A stretch of 63,668 nucleotides of DNA, counting the filler, from Reticulomyxa filosa (Eukaryota; Protista; Foraminifera), in assembly GCA_000512085.1 (NCBI GenBank). It is 19 parts of 19 records of this genome, joined end to end, with 100 filler letters (N's around TTAATTAATTAA, not from the genome) between each part and the next. Parts side by side here need not be neighbours in the genome. Positions count along the whole stretch, not along the records: positions 24,174 to 28,567 come from ASPP01003678.1; 18 more parts are not named here. The stretch is one strand, 5' to 3'. Below, one piece after another: positions 14,280 to 43,655 of the stretch (the stretch's first letter is position 1; the number at the start of each line of letters is the position of its first letter). A program made the translations under genes and the position numbers. The notes below the pieces were generated by a model. It did not search any database, was not told the origin of the DNA, and was given only the letters and a program-made list of their open reading frames with translations.

Positions 14280-15667
14280 TTTCCAGCAAGTAATTGGTTG
14301 TTTTGCCACCCATCAATTGCAACTCATCGTTCATGAATATTTCCACGTATTTCCCAAACCTAGACGAGTTATTGTTTCGGAGAGTTTTTGCATTTCCGAA
14401 TCCTTCCAATATCGGATTCGCGTCGAACACTTTCTTCTCTACACCTGCGACTGATCCTGCGACGGCACCCAAGTAAGAGAGACATTGCTTGGTTGCCTCG
14501 GCATTTTTTTTTTTTTTATTTTAGGAATGACGACAAAACTTATTACAAAAAAATTAAAAAAAAAAAAAAAAAAAAAAGACAACCAAACATAATTTTTCAA
14601 AAATAAAAATAAAATAAAAATGTCGTCGATGTTTGGAAAAAAATTTCTCCCAAACTTTTTCCTGCTCCGGACTCTCCGGATATCACAATGGATTGGTTTG
14701 GACCGCTTTCAAATGTTAAACCCTTGTATGCTTGATCGGCCACCACAAACACGTGAGGAGGCACCTCTCGATGTTCTTCCAAAGAGTTGCGATACTTGCG
14801 AATCATTTGCGGCGTGTACAAATCCAATTGCGTATACGGATTAATGGATATCAAAATTGTACCAATTGCTGACTGTCCAATGTGTATGTGTGTGTGTGTG
14901 TAGAGTGAAGGCATAGTATTTTTTTTTAAAGTTTATTTTATTTATTTATTTTTTTTTTTTTTTTTGGTACATTTTTTTCCCCCCCCCCCCCCTTTTTTTA
15001 ATTATTATTTTTTTTTGTTACAAAAAAATTGTTTAAAATGTATACGTAACATAAATCTTGGCAGCTTCAAACCTCTTTCGCAAGCAATGCAAAATTAAAG
15101 GTACACTCATTTCATCCAATAGTGTTAAATCGGCGACAATGCGCTGCAAACTTGATTTGTTCATGGTGATCAAATCTTTTCGGTTGACATAACGCTCCTC
15201 CCCGGATTCGAGTTCCACTACCACTTGACCGTTGGATTCGTCCAGTTTACGGGCGGGTAAATACACATCCGTTTCATCAGGCACCCATACCCATGCTGAC
15301 TGTTTAATCATCACAATGCTATAGTCATAATTTTTCTAAAATCGCCACCCTCTGCAGACATATAATATACTTTTTTTTTGAAAAAAAATTAAATGGGCTC
15401 CTTAACTGAGCTTTGCTTTTCTTCATCAGTCATCAATTCTTCAGGCTTGTCCCATGTTGTCTCTTGGGTCACACGGTTGAAATAGTAAGCTAACCTGTTT
15501 GTTAACAAGAACGGACGTTAACAACATTTTTCGAACACACCAAACTTTTGTTGGTTACTTCTTCCTTACCCATCTTCTGTTCGCAATTCTTGCCAATCTG
15601 AAAAATTTTCTTCTTCAATATTTTTGTGGGCTTTCCACCACGGCTGACCGGAAGCCTGATTTGACAT
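14280..15667 (-). CDS. Myosin heavy chain, 5' part: WW domain, SH3-like domain and motor (probably class IV)
   Basis: ATG at 15667 gives MSNQASGQPWW..DWQELRTEDG/LAYYFNRVTQETTWDKP (WW), then AWVWVPDETDVYLPA (N-terminal SH3-like), DLTLLDEMS..LRKRF, ILISINPY, PPHVF, GESGAGK and NPILEGFGNAKTLRNNNSSRFGK. Cut by a spacer. Confidence 0.93.
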
Positions 15668-16795: not shown

Positions 16796-17977
16796 TCAGG
16801 CATGGTGACGAACATGCTCTAATTCGTCTTGCAAATCGAAATTTTTATTGTTGACTTGCGGTGATAGCGATTCGGGGTCTTCAATATCATCAGCATCGTC
16901 CCCACTCATTCCAACCCAAGCGCACATCCCGTAAACAAATTCAGGAAACTCAATGGTTTTGTCACCATTGAAGTCTAATTCTTTCAATCGTTCTTGGATC
17001 AGGTCGTCTTCTCTCATGCTGAGAAATGCACTTTTCAGCTCTTCGAAATCAATTTCTTCACTTTTATTTTCATCGATTTGTTCAAAGGCATGACGAACGA
17101 CCTTGTTTTTTTGATCATTGGAAAATTAACACAAACAACATTGCAATTTTTTGAAATGGCTGTCGTTAAGAATACACACAGCACCTTCTCCAACTCAAAA
17201 AGACAATTTTCTCAAAGAAAACTAGAAATCCTTCTCGAATCTCTTGGAAGCGTGTCGAATGATGTTCACCACCTTTTCTCAAAAATAACCCAACCGCGCA
17301 AGCAATCAAAAATTCGCGGAATTCAATCTTTTCATTTCCGCCCAAATTGCTTACTTTTATTATCTCATCGACCTTTGATTCGGTTAGGTCTTCTGGATTT
17401 GCACCCAACTCAATCAACATTTTTTTTACCGATGTCTTTGCGATCCACTTTTCACCTTCGGCATGTTTGTTGAACACTTCTTGTATTGCACGGAATGACT
17501 ACACACAAACCAATTTTTTTTTTTTTACTTTTTTGATTGGTTGATCTTTGTGTGTCATTTATTTCGTTTTTTTTCATTCCGTGTTCCCAACCAAAAATGT
17601 CTTACCCTCCTTATTTTTGGAAACTTCATTGCCACTTGTGCCATAATTGCATTCTGTTCAAATCTCTGGCTTGGCGTTTTCTCGTGTTTCTTGCCCTGTT
17701 TTGTTTTGATTTTTTTAAAAAAAGGGGCAGAATTACAACTCAGAAAAATGGTCGTAGGTTATCTGTTGTCTCCGAATTAGGACTTTAATATAGTTGGAGG
17801 AAAAAATATCTTTCAAACTGATGATAAAGCAATTTGAGTGAAATACTCCTTTTGTGAATGGTGAGATTGCTCATCCACTATGCTCAACATCGATCTTTTA
17901 ATATCGCTCGACTTTCGTCGACGGTTTGCAGCTTGGCTGCGGTTGAAGGAAGTAGGTTTAGTACAACAACTACCCAT
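16796..17977 (-). CDS. Four-EF-hand calmodulin-like protein with an N-terminal MGSCC acylation motif
   Basis: ATG at 17977 gives MGSCCTKPT. Later exons read AQVAMKFPKIRR/SFRAIQEVF.., with EF loops NLGGNEKIEFREF, DENKSEEIDFEEL and DFNGDKTIEFPEF. Stop at 16796. Architecture resembles plant CML21/22-type proteins. Confidence 0.82.
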
Positions 17978-19266: not shown

Positions 19267-20026
19267 AAATTATTTTTTCTTCCCCAAACTAATAAGTTCA
19301 ATTTTTCCACGACATCCAGAAATACTTCATTTTTTTTGTAAGAAATTCCTTCTTTTCGCCAAGGCACTTTTCCAGTAATACTTGCCGTTAAATCAACAGC
19401 TTTGGCAGAACTTTCACCAAACTCGAGTTTGTGCTTTTCCTGCACACAAATATAGTCTTTCAACATTTTCGGATCAGTGTGTTGGGGGTACCCAAAATCG
19501 CACATTTCATCAAACAGTTCATATATCAACACAAAGTTATCTCGAATTGATTCTTGTTCTAAGCCGCCAAAATAATCCTCAAACACCTACTCTCTCCGTA
19601 TATTCATTTGTTGCAATCATATTTTGCCAATTCGTCACAATTTATATCAAAAAAAAAAAGTATAGACAAATTCGCACCTCCACGATTTTGTACAGGAAGC
19701 TTAATATCAGCATCACATTCGCATTTTTCTGGGTCACGCTCAATACTTATTTTTATTTGTTTGTTCGCTTGTTTATGTTTTGAGGCTACTTTTTACTTTT
19801 TTTTGTTTGCTTGCTTGTGTTACGCTTAACTGAAGAGGTCATTGTGCTCGACATAAACAAAGGTAATATCATTTTCCAAGATTATTGGTCGACGTTCAGC
19901 ATCTTCTGTTTCTGCCAAAATACGCCGAAACTCTTCTGAGACGGACAATGGGATTTTACCCCGATAATTTCTTGATATTAAAGGCTTGCCTTTTTGATCA
20001 GTAATAAAAACACCGTGAGCGGCCAT
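19267..20026 (-). CDS. AP1M: AP-1 adaptor complex mu subunit (5' part)
   Basis: MAAHGVFITDQKGKPLISRNYRG...VFEDYFGGLEQESIRDNFVLIYELFDEMCDFGYPQHTD...VPWRKEGISYKKNEVFLDVVEKLNLLV. Multi-exon and cut by a spacer. Confidence 0.93.
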
Positions 20027-20386
20027 CAATTCACCACACTTGCTACCAATTTAATTATTCTAAAAAAAAAGCCTCCTTAGATTTCAACGTTCGATTAACC
20101 TTTTTTTGAGCCGAAATACTGCAACTTTACTTTTGTCGTTGTTGTTAACAAATCTTGATCTAGCTTCATTTAATATAGTACGAGCGACGAGTTAAGTTTA
20201 TCCTACGCTAATAATAAAATCTTCCAAGTTGCGTAAGCTGCTGAAAAGATTGCATGCAAACAAAAGAAAAAAAGCAAAACAACCAAAAAAAAATGAGATT
20301 TGTACAAGAGCATTTTCGCAAGAATGGTTCTAAAAAAAAGAATCAGAAGGGGGGGGTGGTGTGTGGAGGTGGGAATAATCGAAACG

Positions 20387-23128: not shown

Positions 23129-24989
23129 TCTATTTCTTGTTGCCAACACGCCTTTTTATTATTATAAAAAAAGTGAGCGAAAGAAATCCCCCTTTTTTGT
23201 GTGTGTTTTGATGTGTTGAAAATGTAAAAAAGAGAAATTGAAGATAGGAAGAAAGGGGGGGGAAAATATTTAATTGCTGATATTTTTTTTCGGATTTTTT
23301 CGGGGTTTTTATTTAAAAAAAACACTTTTTTTCATTGATTTTTGTTTGGATCCAAATGCTTTTGTTTTTGTCAACAAGTCCGAAATAGTCTTTGTTGAAT
23401 TGTCACAGCTAACGAAACTACTTATAAAATAGATTTCTCAATGTACGTTCTTGCTGTGCTGCTTTTTTTCTCTTGTAATTATGACCAAATAGATAGCATA
23501 AGCTACATTTTGAGTTTAGCGGAGAGACAAATTAAGCAGAAAAACTCCATTGCCATCATTATCACCAAGTAAAAGGGACTGACATTAAACTAAAACTGTC
23601 AAAGACAGGCCACAGACATCATTCCAAACAGGTTGGAATTTTATAAAAAATTTTCAAAACTTTATGAGATTAAAAAACACAGTCAAATCAATAAGTATAA
23701 TCAAACAAACAACTTTGCATGCAACTAGTCTTACCACGTTGATTTAGATTGCAGTTGAATATTGTTTTCTTTTCAATTTTCCTTACTTTGTTTCATGTCT
23801 TGGAAAGTTGAAAGATGACAATGATATTGTGACAATCGATCTGCACTGAAACATTTTGTAATTTTGAAGTAAAACTGTGTTATTTTTATCTTATTCCATT
23901 TTTGTGCTTTATGCTTGCTGTGTCCTGCTCAGAACGAAGTGAACGAATTCAGTGTACGATTAATGCTTGCTGCATTGTGTCCTTAAAATAATAAAAGCTT
24001 TTTGTAGCACAAGTTGCTTACTTTTAGAACAATATACTTTGCAAAACCAAAGCAGGACGTTAACAAAAACACANNNNNNNNNNNNNNNNNNNNNNNNNNN
24101 NNNNNNNNNNNNNNNNNTTAATTAATTAANNNNNNNNNNNNNNNNNNNNNNNNNNNNNNNNNNNNNNNNNNNNTTACAGCTGCAGCCCTCTTTCCAAACA
24201 AAATAAAAAATGTATACGTACCCTCCCTCCAAAGAAAAATTTCGGGGTTGAAGCCACCTCAGTATTCAAAAAAAAAAGAAAGGTTTATTTTTTATTTTTT
24301 GTTTTTATTTTTTTAATAAAACGTATGTTTGTGTTGAATAGGCATGCCCCCTTCAAAAAAAGTGTTTTTCCTCTTCCCCTTCTCGTGCAAAGAAAAAAAA
24401 AGTATAGGAGATTGGAATTAGAGCTTATAGCTCCAAGGCAAAAGTATGTTGTTTTTTTTTGTTTTTTTAAAATGAAAAAATTTGATTTGTGATTTACAAA
24501 TAGGAGTCGTAGCAAAACAAGATTTGAAGTTTTTTTATTTTTGTTGTTTATTTTTTTATTTCTATTTGGGATAAGAGGAAATTGAAAAAAGGGATTGCAA
24601 AGTGGTGGGAAAGATTGGGAAAAAATTGTGAAAATATTGGGAAAATATTGTGAAAAAAATGAAAAAATGAATGTAAAAAATGGAGAAAAAATTTTATTTA
24701 ATAAAAGAATGAGAAAATAGAAAAAATAAAAAGAATGCAAAAATTGAAAAAAATAAAAAGAATGAGAAAAAAAGAAAAAAACAAAATTGGCAATTGGAAA
24801 AAAGTAAAAAAAGATTAAAAAGATAATAAATAAAAAAAAGTTTTAAAAGTAAAAGGGAAAAAGAGTGGAAATGAAAAGAATAATGAAGAAAAAAGAAGAA
24901 GAAAAGAGCAAAGACTGTTCGCTCGTTGTGAAGCGTCTTAATTTGGTGAAGTTTGCTCAAACTCAAGACAAGCAACAAAGCATGAAGAT

Positions 24990-27960
24990 TAGTTGCTGTT
25001 GAGACTGGTCGCTTATCGAAAATATCGTGTACTGCGCATATGCGCAACTTTGGATTTGTCATGAATGTTCTGATTATAGTAGTCATGATCAACGAAGACG
25101 CCCAAGAATGAATAAAAATGGTACTAACCAATCATCAAATCGCAAATAGAATATTTGATATACTAGAAATGTCGTGCAAAGTGTGTATCTTATCAAAAGG
25201 AACGAGTTTTTCCAATTACAAAGTCAATTTGCTATCGTGGAACAGTTCGACAAGATTTTTCCGATAAGTCCCGAAAAGTTAGATCTGGTGCCAGACGACG
25301 AAAGAAAGATCACCAACAAGAAAAAAGAAAGATGGCGATACTATCAAAGTAGAAAAGATGGTTTCGCAACGGCTGAGAGAAGAAGTGGAAATTGTTGAAA
25401 AAGAATGTGTAAGTTGTTAGGAAACACTTACTTACGCCAATTGAGAAAACCACTACATTGGAAGAATGAGTGGTTCAACTTGGATGAGGGATTGTGCGAA
25501 ACTCCGTCGGTATATTGACAGCCAAGAAGAGAAATATGATGAGGAGAAGGAGGAGAATGATGATAATGAAAAAAAGAAAGAATATCGAAGATTCTCGTTG
25601 GATCTGTTTTTTTTAAAAAAATGTTTGCAGATTTACTGAATGTGATTATGCACTGGATCTTCACATCCGCGAGTGTAGACTTCGTGTTTCCAGATATTCA
25701 CTACTTTCCCATAGAACGCTCCAATCAAAGAAAATGAAAAGTGTGTGGAAACGTCCAGCAGTGGCACCCGAACATTTGAAAAGAACTTGGCCATCATATG
25801 TCATACAAGTCTCTGGCGCTTTGCCAACAATCATCCGCAAAGAGGTAGTCTAGCTGCGATTTACATGTTCCAACGATCAAGTGAAGAGTGATTGTTATAA
25901 AAATAGGGCTAACTACTAGTGTCAAAACTGGTCGTGTGCGTACGCACATTCGCGACTTGGATTTTGTTCGTGCATAAGCTGATGGTAGTAATCGTTCGCA
26001 CGAATACGCTCAAGAAAGAAAAAAAAAAAAGAACAGTACTCAATACTTCATTAAATCGCAAATAGAAGCATGTGGATGTCTGGAAACGCCTGCTCAAAGT
26101 GTGTCTCTCATTACAAGGGAGACTATTTTTTTTTAAGTACGAAGTCCATCAGCTCTAGTGGAATAGTTGGACAAGAATTACCCGAGCAGTCCCGGAAAGT
26201 TGGATCTTGGTGCATCCAGACGACGAAAGAAAGCTCACCAAAAGAACAAAAAAGAAAGAGGTTGATACGCGTAAAGTGGAAAAGATTGTGTCGCAACGAC
26301 TGCAGAAAAGAAGTGGAAATCGATGAAAAAAGAGAGTGGAAGTCGTTGGTAAATACATACTTCAGTAATCAAGAAAACCACAGCATTGGGAGAACATTCC
26401 ATGTGAAAGTGGTTCAACCTGGTGGAGGAGTTGTGCGAAACTCCGTCAATAAATTGGCAACCAAGAAGAATAATGTAAGGAGAATGAGAAGGAGGAGGAT
26501 GAAGAGAAAGAAGAGAATATCGAAATAATATTCGCGTTGGACCTGTTTTAAAAAAAAAAAAAAAAAAGTCTACAGATTTACAATCGCTGGCGTGAAGATC
26601 CAGTGCATAACCACACTCAGTAAATTTTGTGTTTCCAGATATACACTACCTTCATATAGAACGGCTCCAATCAAAGAGAATGAATAAGTTGTGGAAAATC
26701 TTGCAGTGGTAACTGGAAAAAATTGAAAGAAATTAGCCATCAACATATGCGCACACAAGTCTCTGACGATTTGCTACGCCAACAATGATCCACAAAGAGG
26801 GCGCCGAACTGTGATTTACAGACTCCAACCAACAAGTGAAACCCGTTTGTCATAGAAATGATGCTAAATAATCGTGTTGAAATTAGTAGTGTCTGTGCGC
26901 ATATTCGCAACTTTGGCTTTTTAGTCGTCCGTGTGCTGCTGATGGGAGAAATGATGAGATCACGAATGACATAAGCATTATAATCGGTGAAAAGAGAACT
27001 GTTTCATTTTCTGTCTCAGTTCGGTAAAGATCATTAGCGCTTATTGACAGACTCAAGGCGCTCGACTCTTGAAGTGTGAACTACAGACGGCGTGTTGAAT
27101 GCGACGCAATAATTTATATTCGTTACGTTATCACAGTAATTGGAAAACATTAAAATGCATGTCGTTAAGTTTAATTGGATTCGAGTCGATGTGATTTTAA
27201 ATTGTGAATCGCGTAGTGACTTTGGCGTACTCAAAAACGAATAGTCCAATAGTGAAAAAGAAAATAAGAATGGTATCCTCTATCATTGAATCGACAATCC
27301 AAATATTGTCGAATGAGCACATCATGATGGATGCAGAAATTTTTAAGCGTGACCATTATCCAACGCCAAAGCGTGTCCATCATTACAATGGCGACAAAGT
27401 GAATGAACGTCGTATTTAGAAATTATCTATCCATAAGATAGCATTGAAATTTTTGAAAAAAATTGTCCCAGTTCAATCGTGGATAATATTTCTTTTTGGT
27501 AAGCTTCGTGTGGGGCAGCACCAAGATCCAGGAAAGAAAGACGTGGCGCAAAAAAAAAAACATATCAACATCACGACTGGATTGATCGAAGAAATGGAAA
27601 AATGGAAGACAAAGAAAAAGAGGATGCGCGTTATGAAAATAATCACATATATGATCAAGTAAACCACCTCACATGGAATCATTCTCCCGATATTGTTGTG
27701 GCTCCAATTTGGTAGAATGAGTTTTGCGATATTCAAGTCAAGATCATTAGCAAATAAGAAGGAGATGATGTGAAAGAAGATTATTCAAGGCCATACCGTT
27801 GTTGGATGTATTTTAAAAAAAAAAACAAACAATCTGTCGACTTTACTTTGATTAGGAATAGCTCTCTTCACACCCCACAGTAGCAACTTTGCGAATCTTA
27901 ACATGGACTGATTTCATATAGTGCGCCCCCTCAATAGAAACTACTGGAAGGTGTGTGTAA
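24990..27960 (+). pseudogene. Degenerate tandem array of a ~0.9-0.95-kb coding unit (two full copies, one truncated start, one more diverged copy), unknown protein domain
   Basis: Anchors recur: HMRNFGF/HIRDLDF/HIRNFGF at ~25038, ~25946 and ~26900; CAGACGACGAAAGAAAG at ~25292 and ~26217; TGTGCGAAACTCCGTC at ~25493 and ~26432; TTTCCAGATAT at ~25687 and ~26632. A diverged copy lies at ~27215-27960. Many stops and frameshifts. Confidence 0.8.
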
Positions 27961-29169
27961 CAATGTCAAGCGCAGTCCAATGATAATGACAACGACGATA
28001 ACGATAACGCAGTTCATGTTCATTCTACTCATTTGTCAATTACTTTAATACATTGGACTGGTATTGTGTGCGCCGATATTTGATCCACTGCTGTTGGTGT
28101 CGCGGAAGAGAGGTAGTATTGTTGCACCATTTATTGCAAAAAGCAACAAGTCGTACCAATCGATAATGGATCGACGATTCAAAAGTCGCTCTGTTATTTG
28201 CCGAACAAAACAAAAGCTGGATATCTGCAATGTGTTGGTGGCGCTGGACCCTGCTGAGTGCAATATTTGTGTCAGCGGTCGAGCCCCCCCTCTCTATTCT
28301 TTCATCTCACCTCTCTTATCTCAAAGACGCCGTCGCTGTGGATATGAGCGAATTGTTCGGTTATCAAAAACCGAATCACTCAAATTCGAAAAGTGGAATG
28401 GTCTGCCATTGACAAGACCGCCATCCAAAAAAGTAGTAGCTCTAGTGGAAGAGCCTTTCAATGATAATAGCTTCCCCAAGTAACAGTTCAATTGTTCCAA
28501 ATAACGGGATGGTTGATGGAAGCATTATCATTGAAACCAGCGCGCGCATTCCAACACAAGACTTCAANNNNNNNNNNNNNNNNNNNNNNNNNNNNNNNNN
28601 NNNNNNNNNNNTTAATTAATTAANNNNNNNNNNNNNNNNNNNNNNNNNNNNNNNNNNNNNNNNNNNNAAGACAAACAAACAAAAGCATATTTTTATATAA
28701 ACAAAAACGTAGATATAAATTTACAAACCCTTTTTTTTTTTCTCCATACGGGGTGGACTTCAACCACTTATTTTTTTTCATAGATGAAGTGTGTTAACAC
28801 TTTTTTTTTTTTCTTTGGATACTTGTGGCGGCGCTATTATAAAACAAATCACAATTTAATATATTAAAAAAAATAAATAAATAAATTACAAACCATTTAA
28901 ACCCCTTTCGGGGACTGGTTCCTCTCAATGCTCTTGCGCCGTCGTCAATGAATAACATCATTTTTTCTTTGGTCCGATGATTTTTCTTCGGCGATTTTTG
29001 GCACTAGATGATCGGCACCATTGGTGGAGTAGCGCCCGAGCATGTCAAATATTTGGTCTATGTATTTTTGTAAAAAGACAATCTAATAACAATATTACAC
29101 ACTATATATATATATATGCATTTGTATATGTACAGATACAATATTTATTTATACATGTATAAGATATAC

Positions 29170-32780: not shown

Positions 32781-32880
32781 NNNNNNNNNNNNNNNNNNNN
32801 NNNNNNNNNNNNNNNNNNNNNNNNTTAATTAATTAANNNNNNNNNNNNNNNNNNNNNNNNNNNNNNNNNNNNNNNNNNNN

Positions 32881-35567
32881 CCACCATTAGAGGTAACAAT
32901 TTGGTCATGACAGGCAAAGTCAGTCCCTCTTCCAAATGATTTGGTGAATAGTCCAATTTGACCAGAGGTAGTGGCGCGTTTTATCAAAGACTCTTTTTCT
33001 GCAAAAGAATTCTCTTCTGTCATCACAATCGCAGTGCTCTTCATTGGTGCAAAGTCAACGGATTCGTAAAACTCGTTCAATGATTTTATGGAATCAAAGA
33101 ATACCAAAACAGCTCGCTTTGTTCCCCCCATTTTTCCAACAAGTCGGCAGTCAATTTCTGTTTTCAATGCATTAAAGTAGATGCTTTCATCTTCAATGAT
33201 AATATCAGGTTTTTCTGCAAAGGAAAGCTTATGCTCGCCAAACAAAGACGGTATATACGTAAATTTGGACACACGATAATCTTCTTCCACCACATTTTTT
33301 TCAATGTCGCTCAATGTCGTCAACGTTCCACTTACCCCCATGATGCAACAAAACTTTTTGGGAACCTCTGCATAAGAGAAGCTGCCAATTTGAAAGGAAA
33401 TAAAGACATTTTGTTTAAAACTTTCGTCACTAATCTTAGCTTGTTGATGTTCGTGATAGTATGCAAACAAAGTCTTGTATCCATAGCGAACATTGTAGGA
33501 AATACTGTTTTGGTCTTTGTATCTAATTTTGTCATTACTGACTTGATAACTTTGAGACGCAAATGTGTACACATCCCTCAACATATCTTTGATGGCTTCG
33601 TCCAACAACAAGTCCCATCCTTTCAATATGTTACAACAGGCCCTGTATACAAGTGATTCCCTCACTTTGTTCAATGTTAAACGAGGTTCTCGATTGCTCC
33701 AAATGAAATCAATCAATTGAATAATGGTGTCATGACGCAATGTCGCGGCCGGAGAATAGAAACTACCGTAAAACTCTTTACTAAAAAATATATCGACCTC
33801 ATCGATTAACAGTATTTTCGCACGAGCAGTACGAGCTGTTTCATTGAAAAATATTTGTTCTTCTTTTCTGTCTTCTCCTGAAAGCAGTAAGTGTTCCACG
33901 AGTTTGCGTACATCTCCTTCGTCATTGATAAGTCTCTCACAAAGTTGGTTAAAGGTGCCATAATGAATATGATCGGCTACTCCAAATGCATTAAATAACG
34001 GTTCAAAGATTTTCAAATCTCTACAGCTCAAGTATTCACTGTACGAAGCACAACCCACATCAAAGCCAAACAATGCCAATGCACATGCGGTAACGGCCAA
34101 GGTAATCGATTTTCCTTCTCCAGTTCCAATTTGAACAAAGTTGTTGATTAGTCCAGGTTTGCCTTCGTCAATGCCCAGCATACAAAAAATTGCAATAACC
34201 TGGGCAGCATGTGGCTTCAATAAATAAGACTCTTTGTCGTCCACACCGTTTGCATCGTGATAATATTGTGAATTTTGAAGTGTCCATAATGCAAAGATAT
34301 GTGCTAATAGACTCGACATGCTGTCTCGGATTGTTGCGTCCCACGTGATATTGTCTAGATTTTGTTTGCCTCTACGGCAATTCTTTTTGGCATTGCTTGT
34401 TAATACTGTAAAATTAGGCTCTTTTTCTACTAAGTGTTTGCTTATTAATTTATTGTACTCTTTATCAAATTCATCATATCTTTTTTTCAATGTGTCAATA
34501 GCATTTTGATTGCGAGCTGATTTAATTTTCTCCAAAACATGGTCAATTTCGATTGCCTTTGTCTTCGTATTGAACAACGAAATCAAATATCCTTTAAATG
34601 CCAAGTGTTCCGTAACAATCATTTCACCAATTCCAGTTAAGTCCTTTTCTAATTCAATCGCAAGTATGGCAATATTTGCACCACTTTTTTGTAATTTGAA
34701 AGTGTGCAAGATACCATCGATATCTTTGTTTATTATATCTTTAAAATTGAGAATATGTATGGACATTTCTTTCATTGCCAACAAATAAGGAGTGAGCACA
34801 ACACTATTCAAATTATCCATTGCTCCTTTTTTCAACTGTTCGATTCGGTTATGCACAAGAGTGTTGACAGCACTGATTTGAGATCCGACAATGTCCGAAA
34901 AGACACCATGCTTTTGCATGCAAGAGAGACATAGATAATAGATATTTATTTGCTGGTAGTCATGGGTTGTCCAATTCAATTTTTCTTTGATACTTTCAAC
35001 ACAGTCTTGCATTTCACTTTTGAATCTCATTTGACAACGAAGCAGCATATCAGTGTTGTTCACTTGGATTTTCAATTGCGACACTTGTTCAATAAAATCC
35101 AACTTTTTTTTCAAATGGCCAAAAAACCGATCTCGATCAGCATCATTTGTTTTGGTTTTGTCATTGATCATACCATCATTGGTGATTTCTTGTGTCATTT
35201 TGTTCAAATGAAAATTGAGGTCACGGACCATGTCAGAATAAGTCCATAGCTTGACAGTAATAGGATCACTGCTATTGTCATTATCGTTAGTACTAATCAA
35301 CAGCTTTGAATTGAAAAAGTACTTTACTTGTTGCAAAAAGGTTCCCTCGTTAGCAAATATATTCGTGACGTCGAATACAATAAATAACTGGGCAATGTCC
35401 ATATTTTCGACAATCCGTTTGAACTTATGCTGAAGCGAATGAAAACATTTGCCAAATTTGTTTTTCAATTCTTTGATCTTTTCGTTGAAATTGATTGGCA
35501 AAAATTGCTCCACACGAATGTCCACAAAAGTGGTTTTGGATTCCATGCATTCAATTATAAAAGCAAG
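32881..35567 (-). CDS. Eukaryotic SecA-DEAD-like SF2 ATPase/helicase (partial at both ends, intronless)
   Basis: KPHAAQ (Q motif), VQIGTGEGKS (SecA-type Walker A), YLSCRD, IHYGT, LLIDEVD (Walker B), GVSGT, RAVLVFF and TKSFGRGTDF. A long helical N-terminal region precedes them. The frame is open across the contig. Confidence 0.88.
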
Positions 35568-36603: not shown

Positions 36604-37355
36604 TTAGTAAACGATTGGGATGAGCCGTGCTCTCCCTTCACAAAAATCTTCATATTCTTTTCCAAAATGCTCTGTCAGCAGTTTTTCTTCTTCTTGAATG
36701 CGAAACATCCCAAAATAAACACACCACAATGTTGCAACGCTAAAGGAGAACCAATCGTTAAAATACAGAGCGTCGCCAATATTTTGCAGCATTTGTCCAG
36801 TGTACCTACCAAACAACAACCGAAAAAATAAAAAGGGGAGAATATAATTATACGTAGTTTTTGTTTGAAGAGAAAAATAATGCGTGAGATAGATTAGTTT
36901 TGCTAAAGAAATAATTTTTTTTTTTAAAAAAAAAGCAAAAAGTAATTTCAATAAAAAAATAAAAAAACGTACCCCGGATGTCTCAAAATTCGATAGGGAC
37001 CAGTTTTAACCACTTTATGATCCTCACGGATTGACAACGAATACATAAAATGTTTGTCAAGTGCCCTTTTGGCCCACCAACGAAATACCCAACCAAACAC
37101 TCCCAAACCGACACCAATCATTTCACGCACTGTCCATGGCTTTTGGTCGGGGTACGTTTTATATGCTCGATAACACTCGTAAACCCATGGAATGTACATC
37201 ATTGCAAAAGACAGTGGCTGCCACACATAAAACATTAACTTGTTGTGTTTTTCAAAACTCTCATTTCGTGATGGTGGAACGCTCTCTTGAATCCACATTA
37301 TACTTCGAAGTACTGACCATGGTAAACGAGATTGTACTAATGTTATCGCGGACAT
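36604..37355 (-). CDS. Isoprenylcysteine carboxyl methyltransferase (ICMT/PEMT) family membrane protein
   Basis: Exons 37355-36973 and 36805-36604 give FRWWAKRALDKHF..SIREDHKVVKTGPYRILRHPG-YTG...RIQEEEKLLTEHFGKEYEDFC..RARLIP. Confidence 0.88.
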
Positions 37356-38179
37356 ATTCTTACGAGCAACAAAGGACGTCGAAAGACTCTTCACTAAAAA
37401 AGCACGTAAACACATACATGATTTCAAAAGATAGTCACTATAAAAAGCATTTACTTTCAAATGTTTTCAGATTCTTTTTTAATTGAAAAAGCAAAATTTA
37501 TTGGGAGTTGAGAAAAGATCAGTAAAATTTAATAAAGTAGTACAAGATACTATCCAATGGAGTCAAATTGACTCTAAATCTTTTTTATTTAATATAATTT
37601 TTTTATACTTCTTTTTTCGACAAACAAGTTGTTCAACCAAAGATGTATAACACGATACTAGAAAACGTAAGCAATTCAAATGAGTACGATTATGTGGCAT
37701 ATATTATCAAAAAGTTTTTAATCATGCAACAAAATGGAAATTATTATCCACAAATTTTTAAATATTTCAAAATTCTTTTTTACTTTTTTATCAATATAAA
37801 CATTTTATTTTTCACTCGAGAAATTTAATAAACATAATAAATATTATATTTAAGTATTAGAGAATGAACGATTTGCTAATGTTGGCATTATACATTTGCA
37901 AACCTTTTCATTTCAACATTTTAAACTTGATTCCGAACATATACTACATAATTGATCTTAAAACAAATCTAAACAAAAAGGACAAAGAATTTTGGCAGGA
38001 AAAATTTTATAAATGACCTAATGTTGATTTGTGTAAAACTAATTTTTGGAATGGATATATATAAAGATGTCAGCCTTCTTCATGCAGGCTAAAGTAAGGC
38101 AAAAACGAACGTTGGTATACCATTATCGGTAATACTTTGTTACTGTTTAATAACTGTGCTTTCTGTTGTGTTCAATAGT

Positions 38180-39095
38180 TAGAAAGACAAGTAGAGACAA
38201 TAATTCAAAATTGGATTCGAATTTTGGATGTTAAATTAGGATGTATTTCTGGTTTTGAAAATATGATAGCAAAATATGTTAATTTATTTGTGTTATTGAG
38301 AATACGAGTAAAATGTAAAATTTCAGTTAAATTAAAAAAAAAAAAGAATAGGTTTGACATTTTCGATTATTAAACGTCTTTCAAGGACACACAGGCGCAG
38401 TAAAAAGCGTAAGATTTTTGAACAGTGGCAGCGAGACTGTCATCATCGTGCGATAAAACAATTCGAATATGGGATATTCAATCGGGAAAACAACTTTAAA
38501 TTTTCAAAGACATTCTAACCACGTAAATTTGGTGGATTTTCTCCTGATGGATTCACGATTATATCATGTTCACAAGATAAAAGCATACGATTGTGGAATG
38601 TAGAATCAGGAACAGAATTGCTGAAATTATAAGGGCATTTGGATGCAGTATAGTATGTAAATTTTTCTCAATGGAAAATATATTGTATCAGGTTCATATG
38701 ATAAAATAATACGATTGTGGGACGTACATTCTGGAAAAGAGATTCAAAAATTACAGTGATATTTAAATGGAATAAGTAATGCTCAATTTTCATCAAATGG
38801 TAAAATGATTGTATCAGCATCTTTTGATAATACAATTGATCTATGGGATATACAATCAGACAAAATAATTCACAAAATATATGGACACAAGAATTACTTG
38901 TCATGTACAAAATTTTCTCCTGATTGCAAATGTATTGTGTCTTGCTCACATGATAGAACGATTCGTTTATTGGATTTGAAAACAGGACAAAAAACACAAA
39001 AATTGGAAGGTAATTCAAGTGTATATAGAATCGGTATTTCACAAGATGGAAATATGATTATTTCAGGTTCTCATGATAAGATTGTACCAGTGTGA
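38180..39095 (+). pseudogene. WD40-repeat pseudogene
   Basis: Leader IIQNWIRILDVKLGCI (same as the gene at 42272), then about six WD40 repeats with in-frame stops (e.g. TAA ~38497, TAA ~38630, TGA ~38757) and several frameshifts. Confidence 0.88.
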
Positions 39096-42271: not shown

Positions 42272-43655
42272 ATGACCACTCATATAAATGAAAAACAAAC
42301 TTCAACACGACCAGCGTTGGTAAACTTCATTTCAATCTTTTCAAAAAGCTAACTGTTCACGTCTACAATGTACTTATATACTTGTTTTGCGTGAAGCTGT
42401 TAGAAGATATTCAAGTAGTTATTCAGCACTGGATTCGAATATTAAACATTACATTAGGATGGATCCATGATTTTGATAAAATTGTTGTCAATTATGTTAT
42501 GTTTCCTTTGTTTTTTATTTTCATTCAATCGCAAATGTATATTTGTTATAATTCATAATTACAATTTAAATAGGTAAGTACGGTCTTCATGTTTGACGTA
42601 TTTATTTCATCATCCAAATTAATAAATACATTCACTGGACATTCTGATATAGTGTGGAGTATTGATTATTCAATATTAGGTGATGGTCAATTCATCTGTT
42701 CTGGATCGGCTGATGAAACAGTTCGTGTATGGGATGTAGAAAACAACAAACAAATTCAATCATTTAATAAACATTCAAGTGCTGTAGCCTGTGTGAAATT
42801 TTCATCATATCATTATCATAACTATCGTCGTAATGTTATTTGTTCTGCATCGGTTGACAGAACAATTCGTTTTTGGGATTTCAAAGATAATAAGGAATTA
42901 CAAATTTTCAATAAACACACAGGTTGGATTGGCGGAATTGAATTTTCACCATTCAATGGTGGTAGATATTTATGTTCTGGATCTGAAGACAATACTATTT
43001 GTTTATGGGATGTTGAAACATCCAAATTATTGCATGTGCTCAAAGGACATAAGGATTGTGTTCGGTCTGTGGATATTTCATCATTACAAAGCAATAACAA
43101 TAAGAATGAAAGTAATAGTATTGGTGTAATTGGTGGTAATGGATATAACATTTGTTCTGGATCATTTGATAATACCATTATACTGTGGGATATTGAGACA
43201 GCCAAACAACTCATTGTCTTCAAAGGACATAGTAAAGGAGTGATGAATGTAAAATATGGATCAAATGAATTCGGTTGTGCAAATACAATACTATCTGGAT
43301 CAAATGATGAAAGTGTTCGTTTGTGGGATGTTCGATCTGGTGAACAAATTCAAGTGTTCAATGGACATGAACGTGGCGTGTACGCTGTTGAATATTCACC
43401 ATTTGTAATAAAGAATAACAGTGAAGCTGTTAGTGGTAATTCAAATGTGATATGTTCTGGATCAGTTGATAATACAATCCGTTTTTGGGATATTCGATCA
43501 AATAAGAATAAATTGCAAGCGATAAAGGGAGATGAAAAAAAAAAGGAATAATATGTCTTAAATTTATATCATCGAAAAAGAAAATAAAAAACAATGATTG
43601 TTGTGTTAATTTATGTTATGGTTCAAATGAAGGTCCAATTAATGTTTGGGGATGA
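42272..43655 (+). CDS. WD40-repeat protein (expanded lineage-specific family)
   Basis: MTTHINEKQTSTRPAL/EDIQVVIQHWIRILNITLGWIHDFDKIVVNY/ followed by six GH..WD repeats. A frameshift in the poly-A at ~43535-43544 precedes GIICLKF..GPINVWG* (TGA at 43655). Confidence 0.9.

Follow-up and report, generated by a model that had tools for sequence, protein, structure and literature searches.

How does a short segment of DNA come to lie reversed, in exact register, in one copy of a tandem repeat, and does the reversal have any effect where it lies? The question is raised by a repeat array in the freshwater foraminiferan amoeba Reticulomyxa filosa, in the second copy of which 38 bp read as the reverse complement of the corresponding segment in the first. 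The array was found in a window (the whole stretch of DNA that was analysed, 63,668 nucleotides) that consists of 19 contigs chained by 18 artificial 100-base N spacers around a TTAATTAATTAA word. The contig that holds the array is 4.4 kb long (24174..28567) and is bounded by these spacers and, because they make adjacency artificial, the genes that neighbour it in the window have to be considered unlinked. A draft assembly of R. filosa comprises 50,809 scaffolds with an N50 of 3,609 and a repeat content of 30.5% (table in PMC13746701).

A tandem array in a short contig

The array consists of three copies of a unit of about 950 bp, all with approximate ends: copy 1 (25025..25930), copy 2 (25932..26890) and copy 3 (26896..28150), the last carrying some 280 extra bases near its start. 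Features given here without a sign have no strand assigned. Copies 1 and 2 align over their full length, with 72% identity in blastn, which counts gaps, and 79% over the 897 ungapped columns; the divergence of copy 3 from both of them is much greater. The homology of the repeat unit seems to reach slightly upstream of copy 1, into 24960-25025, and the DNA ahead of that copy (24174-24900) is A/T-rich and of low complexity, with degenerate tandem units of 9, 11 and 27 bp. At the other end of the array, an open frame of 144 codons (28049-28483, plus strand) runs on from the end of copy 3 and faintly resembles copies 1 and 2 at their ends.

The other contigs of the window carry genes of several kinds. 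A long ORF on the minus strand (32829-35567), cut by its contig end, encodes a SecA DEAD-like domain (PF07517, E 1e-9), which is unusual for a eukaryotic nuclear gene. The plus-strand ORFs 42589-43551 and 38760-39095 belong to a very large WD40 family, the first having 694 relatives at E<=1e-30; it is 100% identical over its full length to a Reticulomyxa filosa protein, and the same species name stands on 120 of the 120 relatives listed. Ordinary intron-containing genes are present at 14280-15314, 16850-17500, 19267-20030 and 36604-37466, all on the minus strand, and this set of four includes an adaptor medium subunit (PF00928) and an ICMT-family methyltransferase (PF04140), together with two genes that we take, from their motifs, to be myosin-like and EF-hand-like.

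An inverted core in copy 2

The micro-inversion is present in the assembled sequence. The preliminary description of this DNA had reported it as a 38-bp event and had predicted that a dot-plot of copy 1 against copy 2 would reveal a short anti-diagonal. Self-blastn of the contig produced precisely that, with one clear short match between copy 1 (25631-25677) and copy 2 read in reverse (26625-26579; 47 bp, 87%, E 3e-11). The reported size and position were confirmed by direct comparison, since the core at 26582..26619 is identical to the copy-1 core (25637-25674) at 32 of 38 positions when flipped and at 6 of 38 when left as it is. At the 79% identity that separates the copies, six or fewer matches in 38 have a probability of 1e-16, and 32 or more would arise by chance with a probability of 8e-13. 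Local reverse-complement alignment of copy 1 to copy 2 gave a top score of 32; over 300 shuffles such scores averaged 10.5 and peaked at 15.

We located the ends of the flipped segment by a scan of breakpoint pairs. The best fit (85 of 101 identities, compared with 59 unflipped) was reached only for symmetric flips, the seven best of which span 38-50 bp, from 26582-26619 out to 26576-26625. Because the best fits are symmetric flips only, the breakpoints lie inside the 6-bp arms that border the core, with no base gained or lost. The register between copies 1 and 2 stays fixed at 945 bases across the 50 bp, and the junctions contain neither indels nor extra bases. The feature thus combines a flipped segment of at least 15 nt, an inverted repeat (IR) at both borders, clean junctions and a lineage assigned by an outgroup, as an IR-flanked pure microinversion does.

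After flipping, 6 of the 38 core positions are unlike copy 1, a proportion similar to that of the flanks (identities of 36 of 43 and 13 of 16, and 79% overall). Since its divergence matches that of the flanks, the inverted core is copy 2's own DNA and not copy-1 DNA pasted into it. The same six differences speak against a library or assembly artefact, in which a chimeric read or a mis-assembly would have reversed the core in a low-coverage contig. Such an error would be in keeping with a contig as short as this one (4.4 kb), taken from a fragmented draft, and with arms that are perfect, as in a fresh event. It would, however, take two switches within 50 bases in exact register, and amplification chimeras usually carry a single fold-back junction. 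We therefore regard an artefact as very unlikely.

Direction of the change

Copy 3 provides an outgroup for deciding which of the two copies was flipped. Its homologous stretch (27841..27887, plus strand) scored 56.5 against copy 1 as it is and 40.0 against copy 1 flipped, and 77.0 against copy 2 flipped and 70.0 against copy 2 as it is. In 1000 shuffles of the core, the p values for the copy-1 orientation were 0.007 and 0.018, and those for the opposite one 0.45 and 0.20. The placement of the event in copy 2, proposed in the preliminary description, agrees with these scores, at a moderate strength that reflects how far copy 3 has diverged, and we take the copy-1 orientation to be ancestral, and the event to belong to the line of copy 2, with moderate confidence.

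A flip in the line of copy 1, or one that preceded the split of the copies, would reverse this polarity. The alignment of the copy 3 core does need gaps, the best ungapped matches being 16 versus 11 of 38, which leaves some room for that reading. Both copies nevertheless score higher against copy 3 when placed in the copy-1 orientation, at the p values given above, and the perfect arms are confined to copy 2. A wrong polarity is in our judgement highly improbable.

The flanking arms

In copy 2 the core lies between the arms ATTTAC (26576..26581, plus strand) and GTAAAT (26620..26625, plus strand), exactly as first described, the right arm being the perfect reverse complement of the left. The left arm is identical in copy 1 and is the putative donor. 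The homologous 50 bp of copy 1 (25631..25680, plus strand), in what is probably the ancestral orientation, carry the arms ATTTAC and GTAGAC, which pair at 4 of 6 positions, compared with 6 of 6 in copy 2. Perfect IRs of at least 6 bp flank about 0.04% of the 146,616 combinations of position and spacer in the contig.

That the arms are perfect in copy 2 alone had been offered as an argument for the event; the observation is true, but the argument is weaker than it seems, because the contrast amounts to two bases, one of which changed in copy 1. At the position of the right arm, copy 1 reads GTAGAC, copy 2 GTAAAT and copy 3 AGCAAC. At base 4 copy 3 agrees with copy 2, which assigns the change to copy 1, and at base 6 it agrees with copy 1, which assigns that change to copy 2. 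By parsimony, the last base of the right arm, a transition, is then the sole derived arm base in copy 2, and since just this one arm base is new there, the argument from perfect arms is weakened but not removed. Five of the six pairs would thus have pre-dated the flip, with one base perfected together with it or afterwards. Just upstream of the left arm of copy 2, the hexamer GTCTAC (26568-26573) is the exact reverse complement of the right arm of copy 1; this is probably a coincidence, as the inversion product does not fit its use.

Coding status and the unlikely reading as a programmed switch

Copies 1 and 2 have stops in all six frames, with 9-20 per frame, and are separated by 33 indels, of which 5 are multiples of three and 28 are not. 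Sequencing error was considered as the cause of these frameshifts and found unlikely, just 5 of the 33 indels falling in homopolymer runs of four or more. Mismatches are evenly distributed across codon positions (p 0.64 and 0.91), and a frameshift-robust test over 14 gap-free blocks gave a p of 0.35. The copies look neutral and decayed, and they probably no longer code for protein.

A coding ancestry of the repeat unit is plausible. The unit may descend from a gene because stop counts are below the mononucleotide-shuffle means in most frames, because three blocks were richer in synonymous changes when read in one minus-strand frame (14 synonymous, 16 non-synonymous), and because of an intron-like stretch of T-run and A-run (26536..26581, with 18 A at 26550-26567). 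In both copy 1 and copy 2 this stretch adjoins the left arm, and the pattern occurs eight times in the window. On the minus strand it can be read as GT..AG from 26581 to 26543, with the left arm as donor, and on the plus strand as GT..AG from 26536 to 26575, with the left arm following the acceptor. An early idea, that the minus-strand frame was the coding frame, was abandoned: the frame failed the global codon-position tests, and the intron-like stretch reads GT..AG both ways. Nor could we uphold as a real frame the peptide read from the repeat in the preliminary description: counting its own, the two strands offer three or more candidate frames, and selection is seen in none of them. The inversion adds two stops to the frame of that peptide and one to the minus-strand candidate, and a third frame is open (26529-26687). 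The affected frames sit in a copy 2 that is already broken, and the inversion is likely to be without functional effect.

Searches for relatives of the array were made with several of these frames. For the minus-strand read-through (P0002), 1381 word-sharing candidates, restricted to near-length proteins, included no match at E<=1, and a search of 1.84 billion representatives yielded no match at E<=0.001. With the same restriction, 954 word-sharing candidates included no match to the plus-strand read-through (P0003), and the originally described frame (P0001; 25030-25890, plus strand), compared with Pfam and PDB only, gave no Pfam match and two weak hits in PDB (E 0.24 and 1). In Pfam, where 41 frames were searched, 35 of them from this contig, nothing above cut-off was obtained for the contig; the ESM Atlas held no usable match for 28049-28480 or 25159-25395, and an exact look-up of 10 ORFs found 0. 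Nothing was returned by tblastn, either when the remainder of the window was searched with frames from copies 1 and 2 or when the contig was searched with 120 WD40 relatives. Rfam produced just two sub-threshold snoRNA matches (E 0.29 and 0.44), which we took as chance, and four metagenome loci with a 19-base core pattern were also dismissed as chance, the blastn similarity stopping at 19-27 bases.

These results bear on whether the inversion could be programmed or reversible, that is, a recombinase-driven switch or a ciliate-like segment turned during nuclear development. Perfect arms at both ends would suit such a device, as would the coincidence of the left arm with an intron-like boundary. 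In the scrambled genes of ciliates, germline and somatic versions differ; here, flipping the core back restores no gene and unscrambling yields no intact coding sequence, because 28 of the 33 indels are not multiples of three and shift the frame, and stops persist in either orientation. Foraminifera do undergo dramatic nuclear reorganisation, with a possible separation of germline and soma, and hardly anything is known of the Reticulomyxa life cycle (PMC10936158), but that account of foraminiferan nuclear cycles does not use the term scrambling. The spacer is also too short to loop easily for site-specific recombination, an argument made for spacers below 33 bp (Potapova, Kondrashov, Mirkin 2022, PMC8755829). 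As for a linked recombinase, no Pfam family was above cut-off in 35 frames of the contig, which at 4.4 kb is too short to exclude one. Taken as a programmed switch, the locus would be something we consider extremely improbable.

Template switching and break repair as possible origins

The reading that we prefer is that the core was flipped in place once, by a two-hop inter-strand template switch of type 3-1-2-4, in what is probably a fragment of a dead gene. Events of this type leave an inverted spacer, copied from the opposite strand, within an IR, and they represent 23% of the high-confidence human-chimpanzee events (Loytynoja and Goldman 2017, PMC5453318). In R. filosa, the copies would have duplicated first, and the arms of copy 2 would then already have paired at about five of six positions. 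The growing strand, its end in the left arm, would have moved over to the right arm that matches it on the opposite template; there the polymerase would have copied backwards through the core and the left arm before returning to the original template behind the right arm, so leaving the core inverted and the right arm rewritten from the left. The adjacent run of 18 A, which ends 8 bases before the left arm, may have been the stall site. Runs of A can stall replication forks.

When the event was simulated on copy 1, a 3-1-2-4 switch, whose product is the left part, the reverse complement of arm plus spacer, and the right part, recovered 44 of the 50 copy-2 bases, including the entire right arm. 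The count was 42 of 50 for a pure flip of the core, 40 for the mirror event, in which the right arm is the donor, and 16 if no event was assumed. DNA folding of the 50-mers predicted no stable hairpin between the arms (MFE -2.3 to -3.2 kcal/mol); as the predicted folds leave the arms unpaired, they argue against a route through a stable hairpin or cruciform and fit an inter-strand jump.

The same clean inversion could have been generated by microhomology-mediated break-induced replication after a double-strand break inside the core, in which the left arm invades the sister chromatid at the right arm, extends to the left arm and re-anneals. This model has been proposed for pure inversions of 17-33 nt with arms as short as 3-7 nt, on the grounds that template switching accounts badly for arms that are imperfect or very short (PMC8755829), and the arms here are of 5-6 bp and the flip is clean. 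In yeast coding DNA, moreover, spacer inversions are seen only where the arms exceed 9 bp and the spacers measure 2-5 bp (Abraham and Hazkani-Covo 2021, PMC8604942), an observation that counts against a switch, though selection limits which of them appear there. No sequence feature of the locus requires a break, and the signature given for template switching is that the right arm is a copy of the left (PMC5453318, PMC8604942). By three-copy parsimony, however, the rewriting of the right arm from its donor comes down to one derived base, the single arm base attributable to the event, and a possible ordinary point change at that base counts against the switch. Because both routes give an identical product, we rate the template switch as somewhat better than an even prospect, and repair of a break as possible though doubtful.

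Two palindromes at one homologous site

Copy 2 contains a perfect 14-bp palindrome (25935..25948) in which two right-arm bases are new compared with copies 1 and 3. At the homologous site copy 1 has a different perfect 14-bp palindrome (25033..25046), with one right-arm base new compared with copies 2 and 3. The two differ in sequence and in centre, and copy 3 is imperfect there. The new bases are all in the right arm and all complete the palindrome, the same direction as in the inversion. GC-containing perfect 14-bp palindromes number three in the 62,084 non-N bases of the window, two of them at this homologous site; under a Markov null at least two were obtained in 7 of 300 runs, a figure to be read with the two sites not being independent. 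The palindromes look like the arm homogenisation described in yeast (PMC8604942).

Discussion

The micro-inversion belongs to a mutation class already described in the literature, and in this array it is likely to represent a one-off copying or repair slip in a decayed repeat. Between human and chimpanzee, 59 pure inversions of 17-33 nt have been reported, all of them IR-flanked and 28 of the 59 with arms of 4-7 nt (PMC8755829). The event in R. filosa resembles these in its clean in-place flip, in having the arms at the borders, in its 4-7-nt arm class and in showing no sign of function. It differs from them in its length (38 bp), in lying between paralogous tandem copies at 79% identity, whereas theirs separate orthologues at 99%, and in its foraminiferan host.

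The locus also resembles the four-point models 3-1-2-4 and 1-3-4-2 (PMC5453318), with which it shares the IR around an inverted spacer and a right arm reproduced exactly in the simulation. Unlike the cases treated there, the ancestor is reconstructed from diverged paralogues, and one base separates the type from a plain flip. The combination of spacer inversion with arm perfection has a parallel in yeast REG2 (PMC8604942), although the yeast spacers are of 2-5 bp, with arms of more than 9 bp, in live genes, whereas in R. filosa the spacer is long, the arms are short and the DNA is decayed.

In a literature search that was incomplete we found no publication on microinversion in foraminifera. 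The present case extends the class to Foraminifera, with the little weight that a single event carries, and the inversion can serve as a marker by which to order the tandem copies. Its importance would grow only if such scars turned out to be far commoner in this genome than elsewhere. A 38-bp inversion and a pair of perfected palindromes within about 1.9 kb of two copies raise the idea that, in this polyploid-type lineage of foraminifera, the repeats undergo template-switch mutagenesis with unusual frequency. Three cases are too few for a rate, and we think it unlikely that the idea will hold. The estimate for apes is of roughly 1 microinversion per 100,000 substitutions (PMC8755829). If the rate in R. 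filosa proved to be far above that estimate, its repeat-rich genome would provide a natural record of template switching beyond animals, yeast and bacteria.
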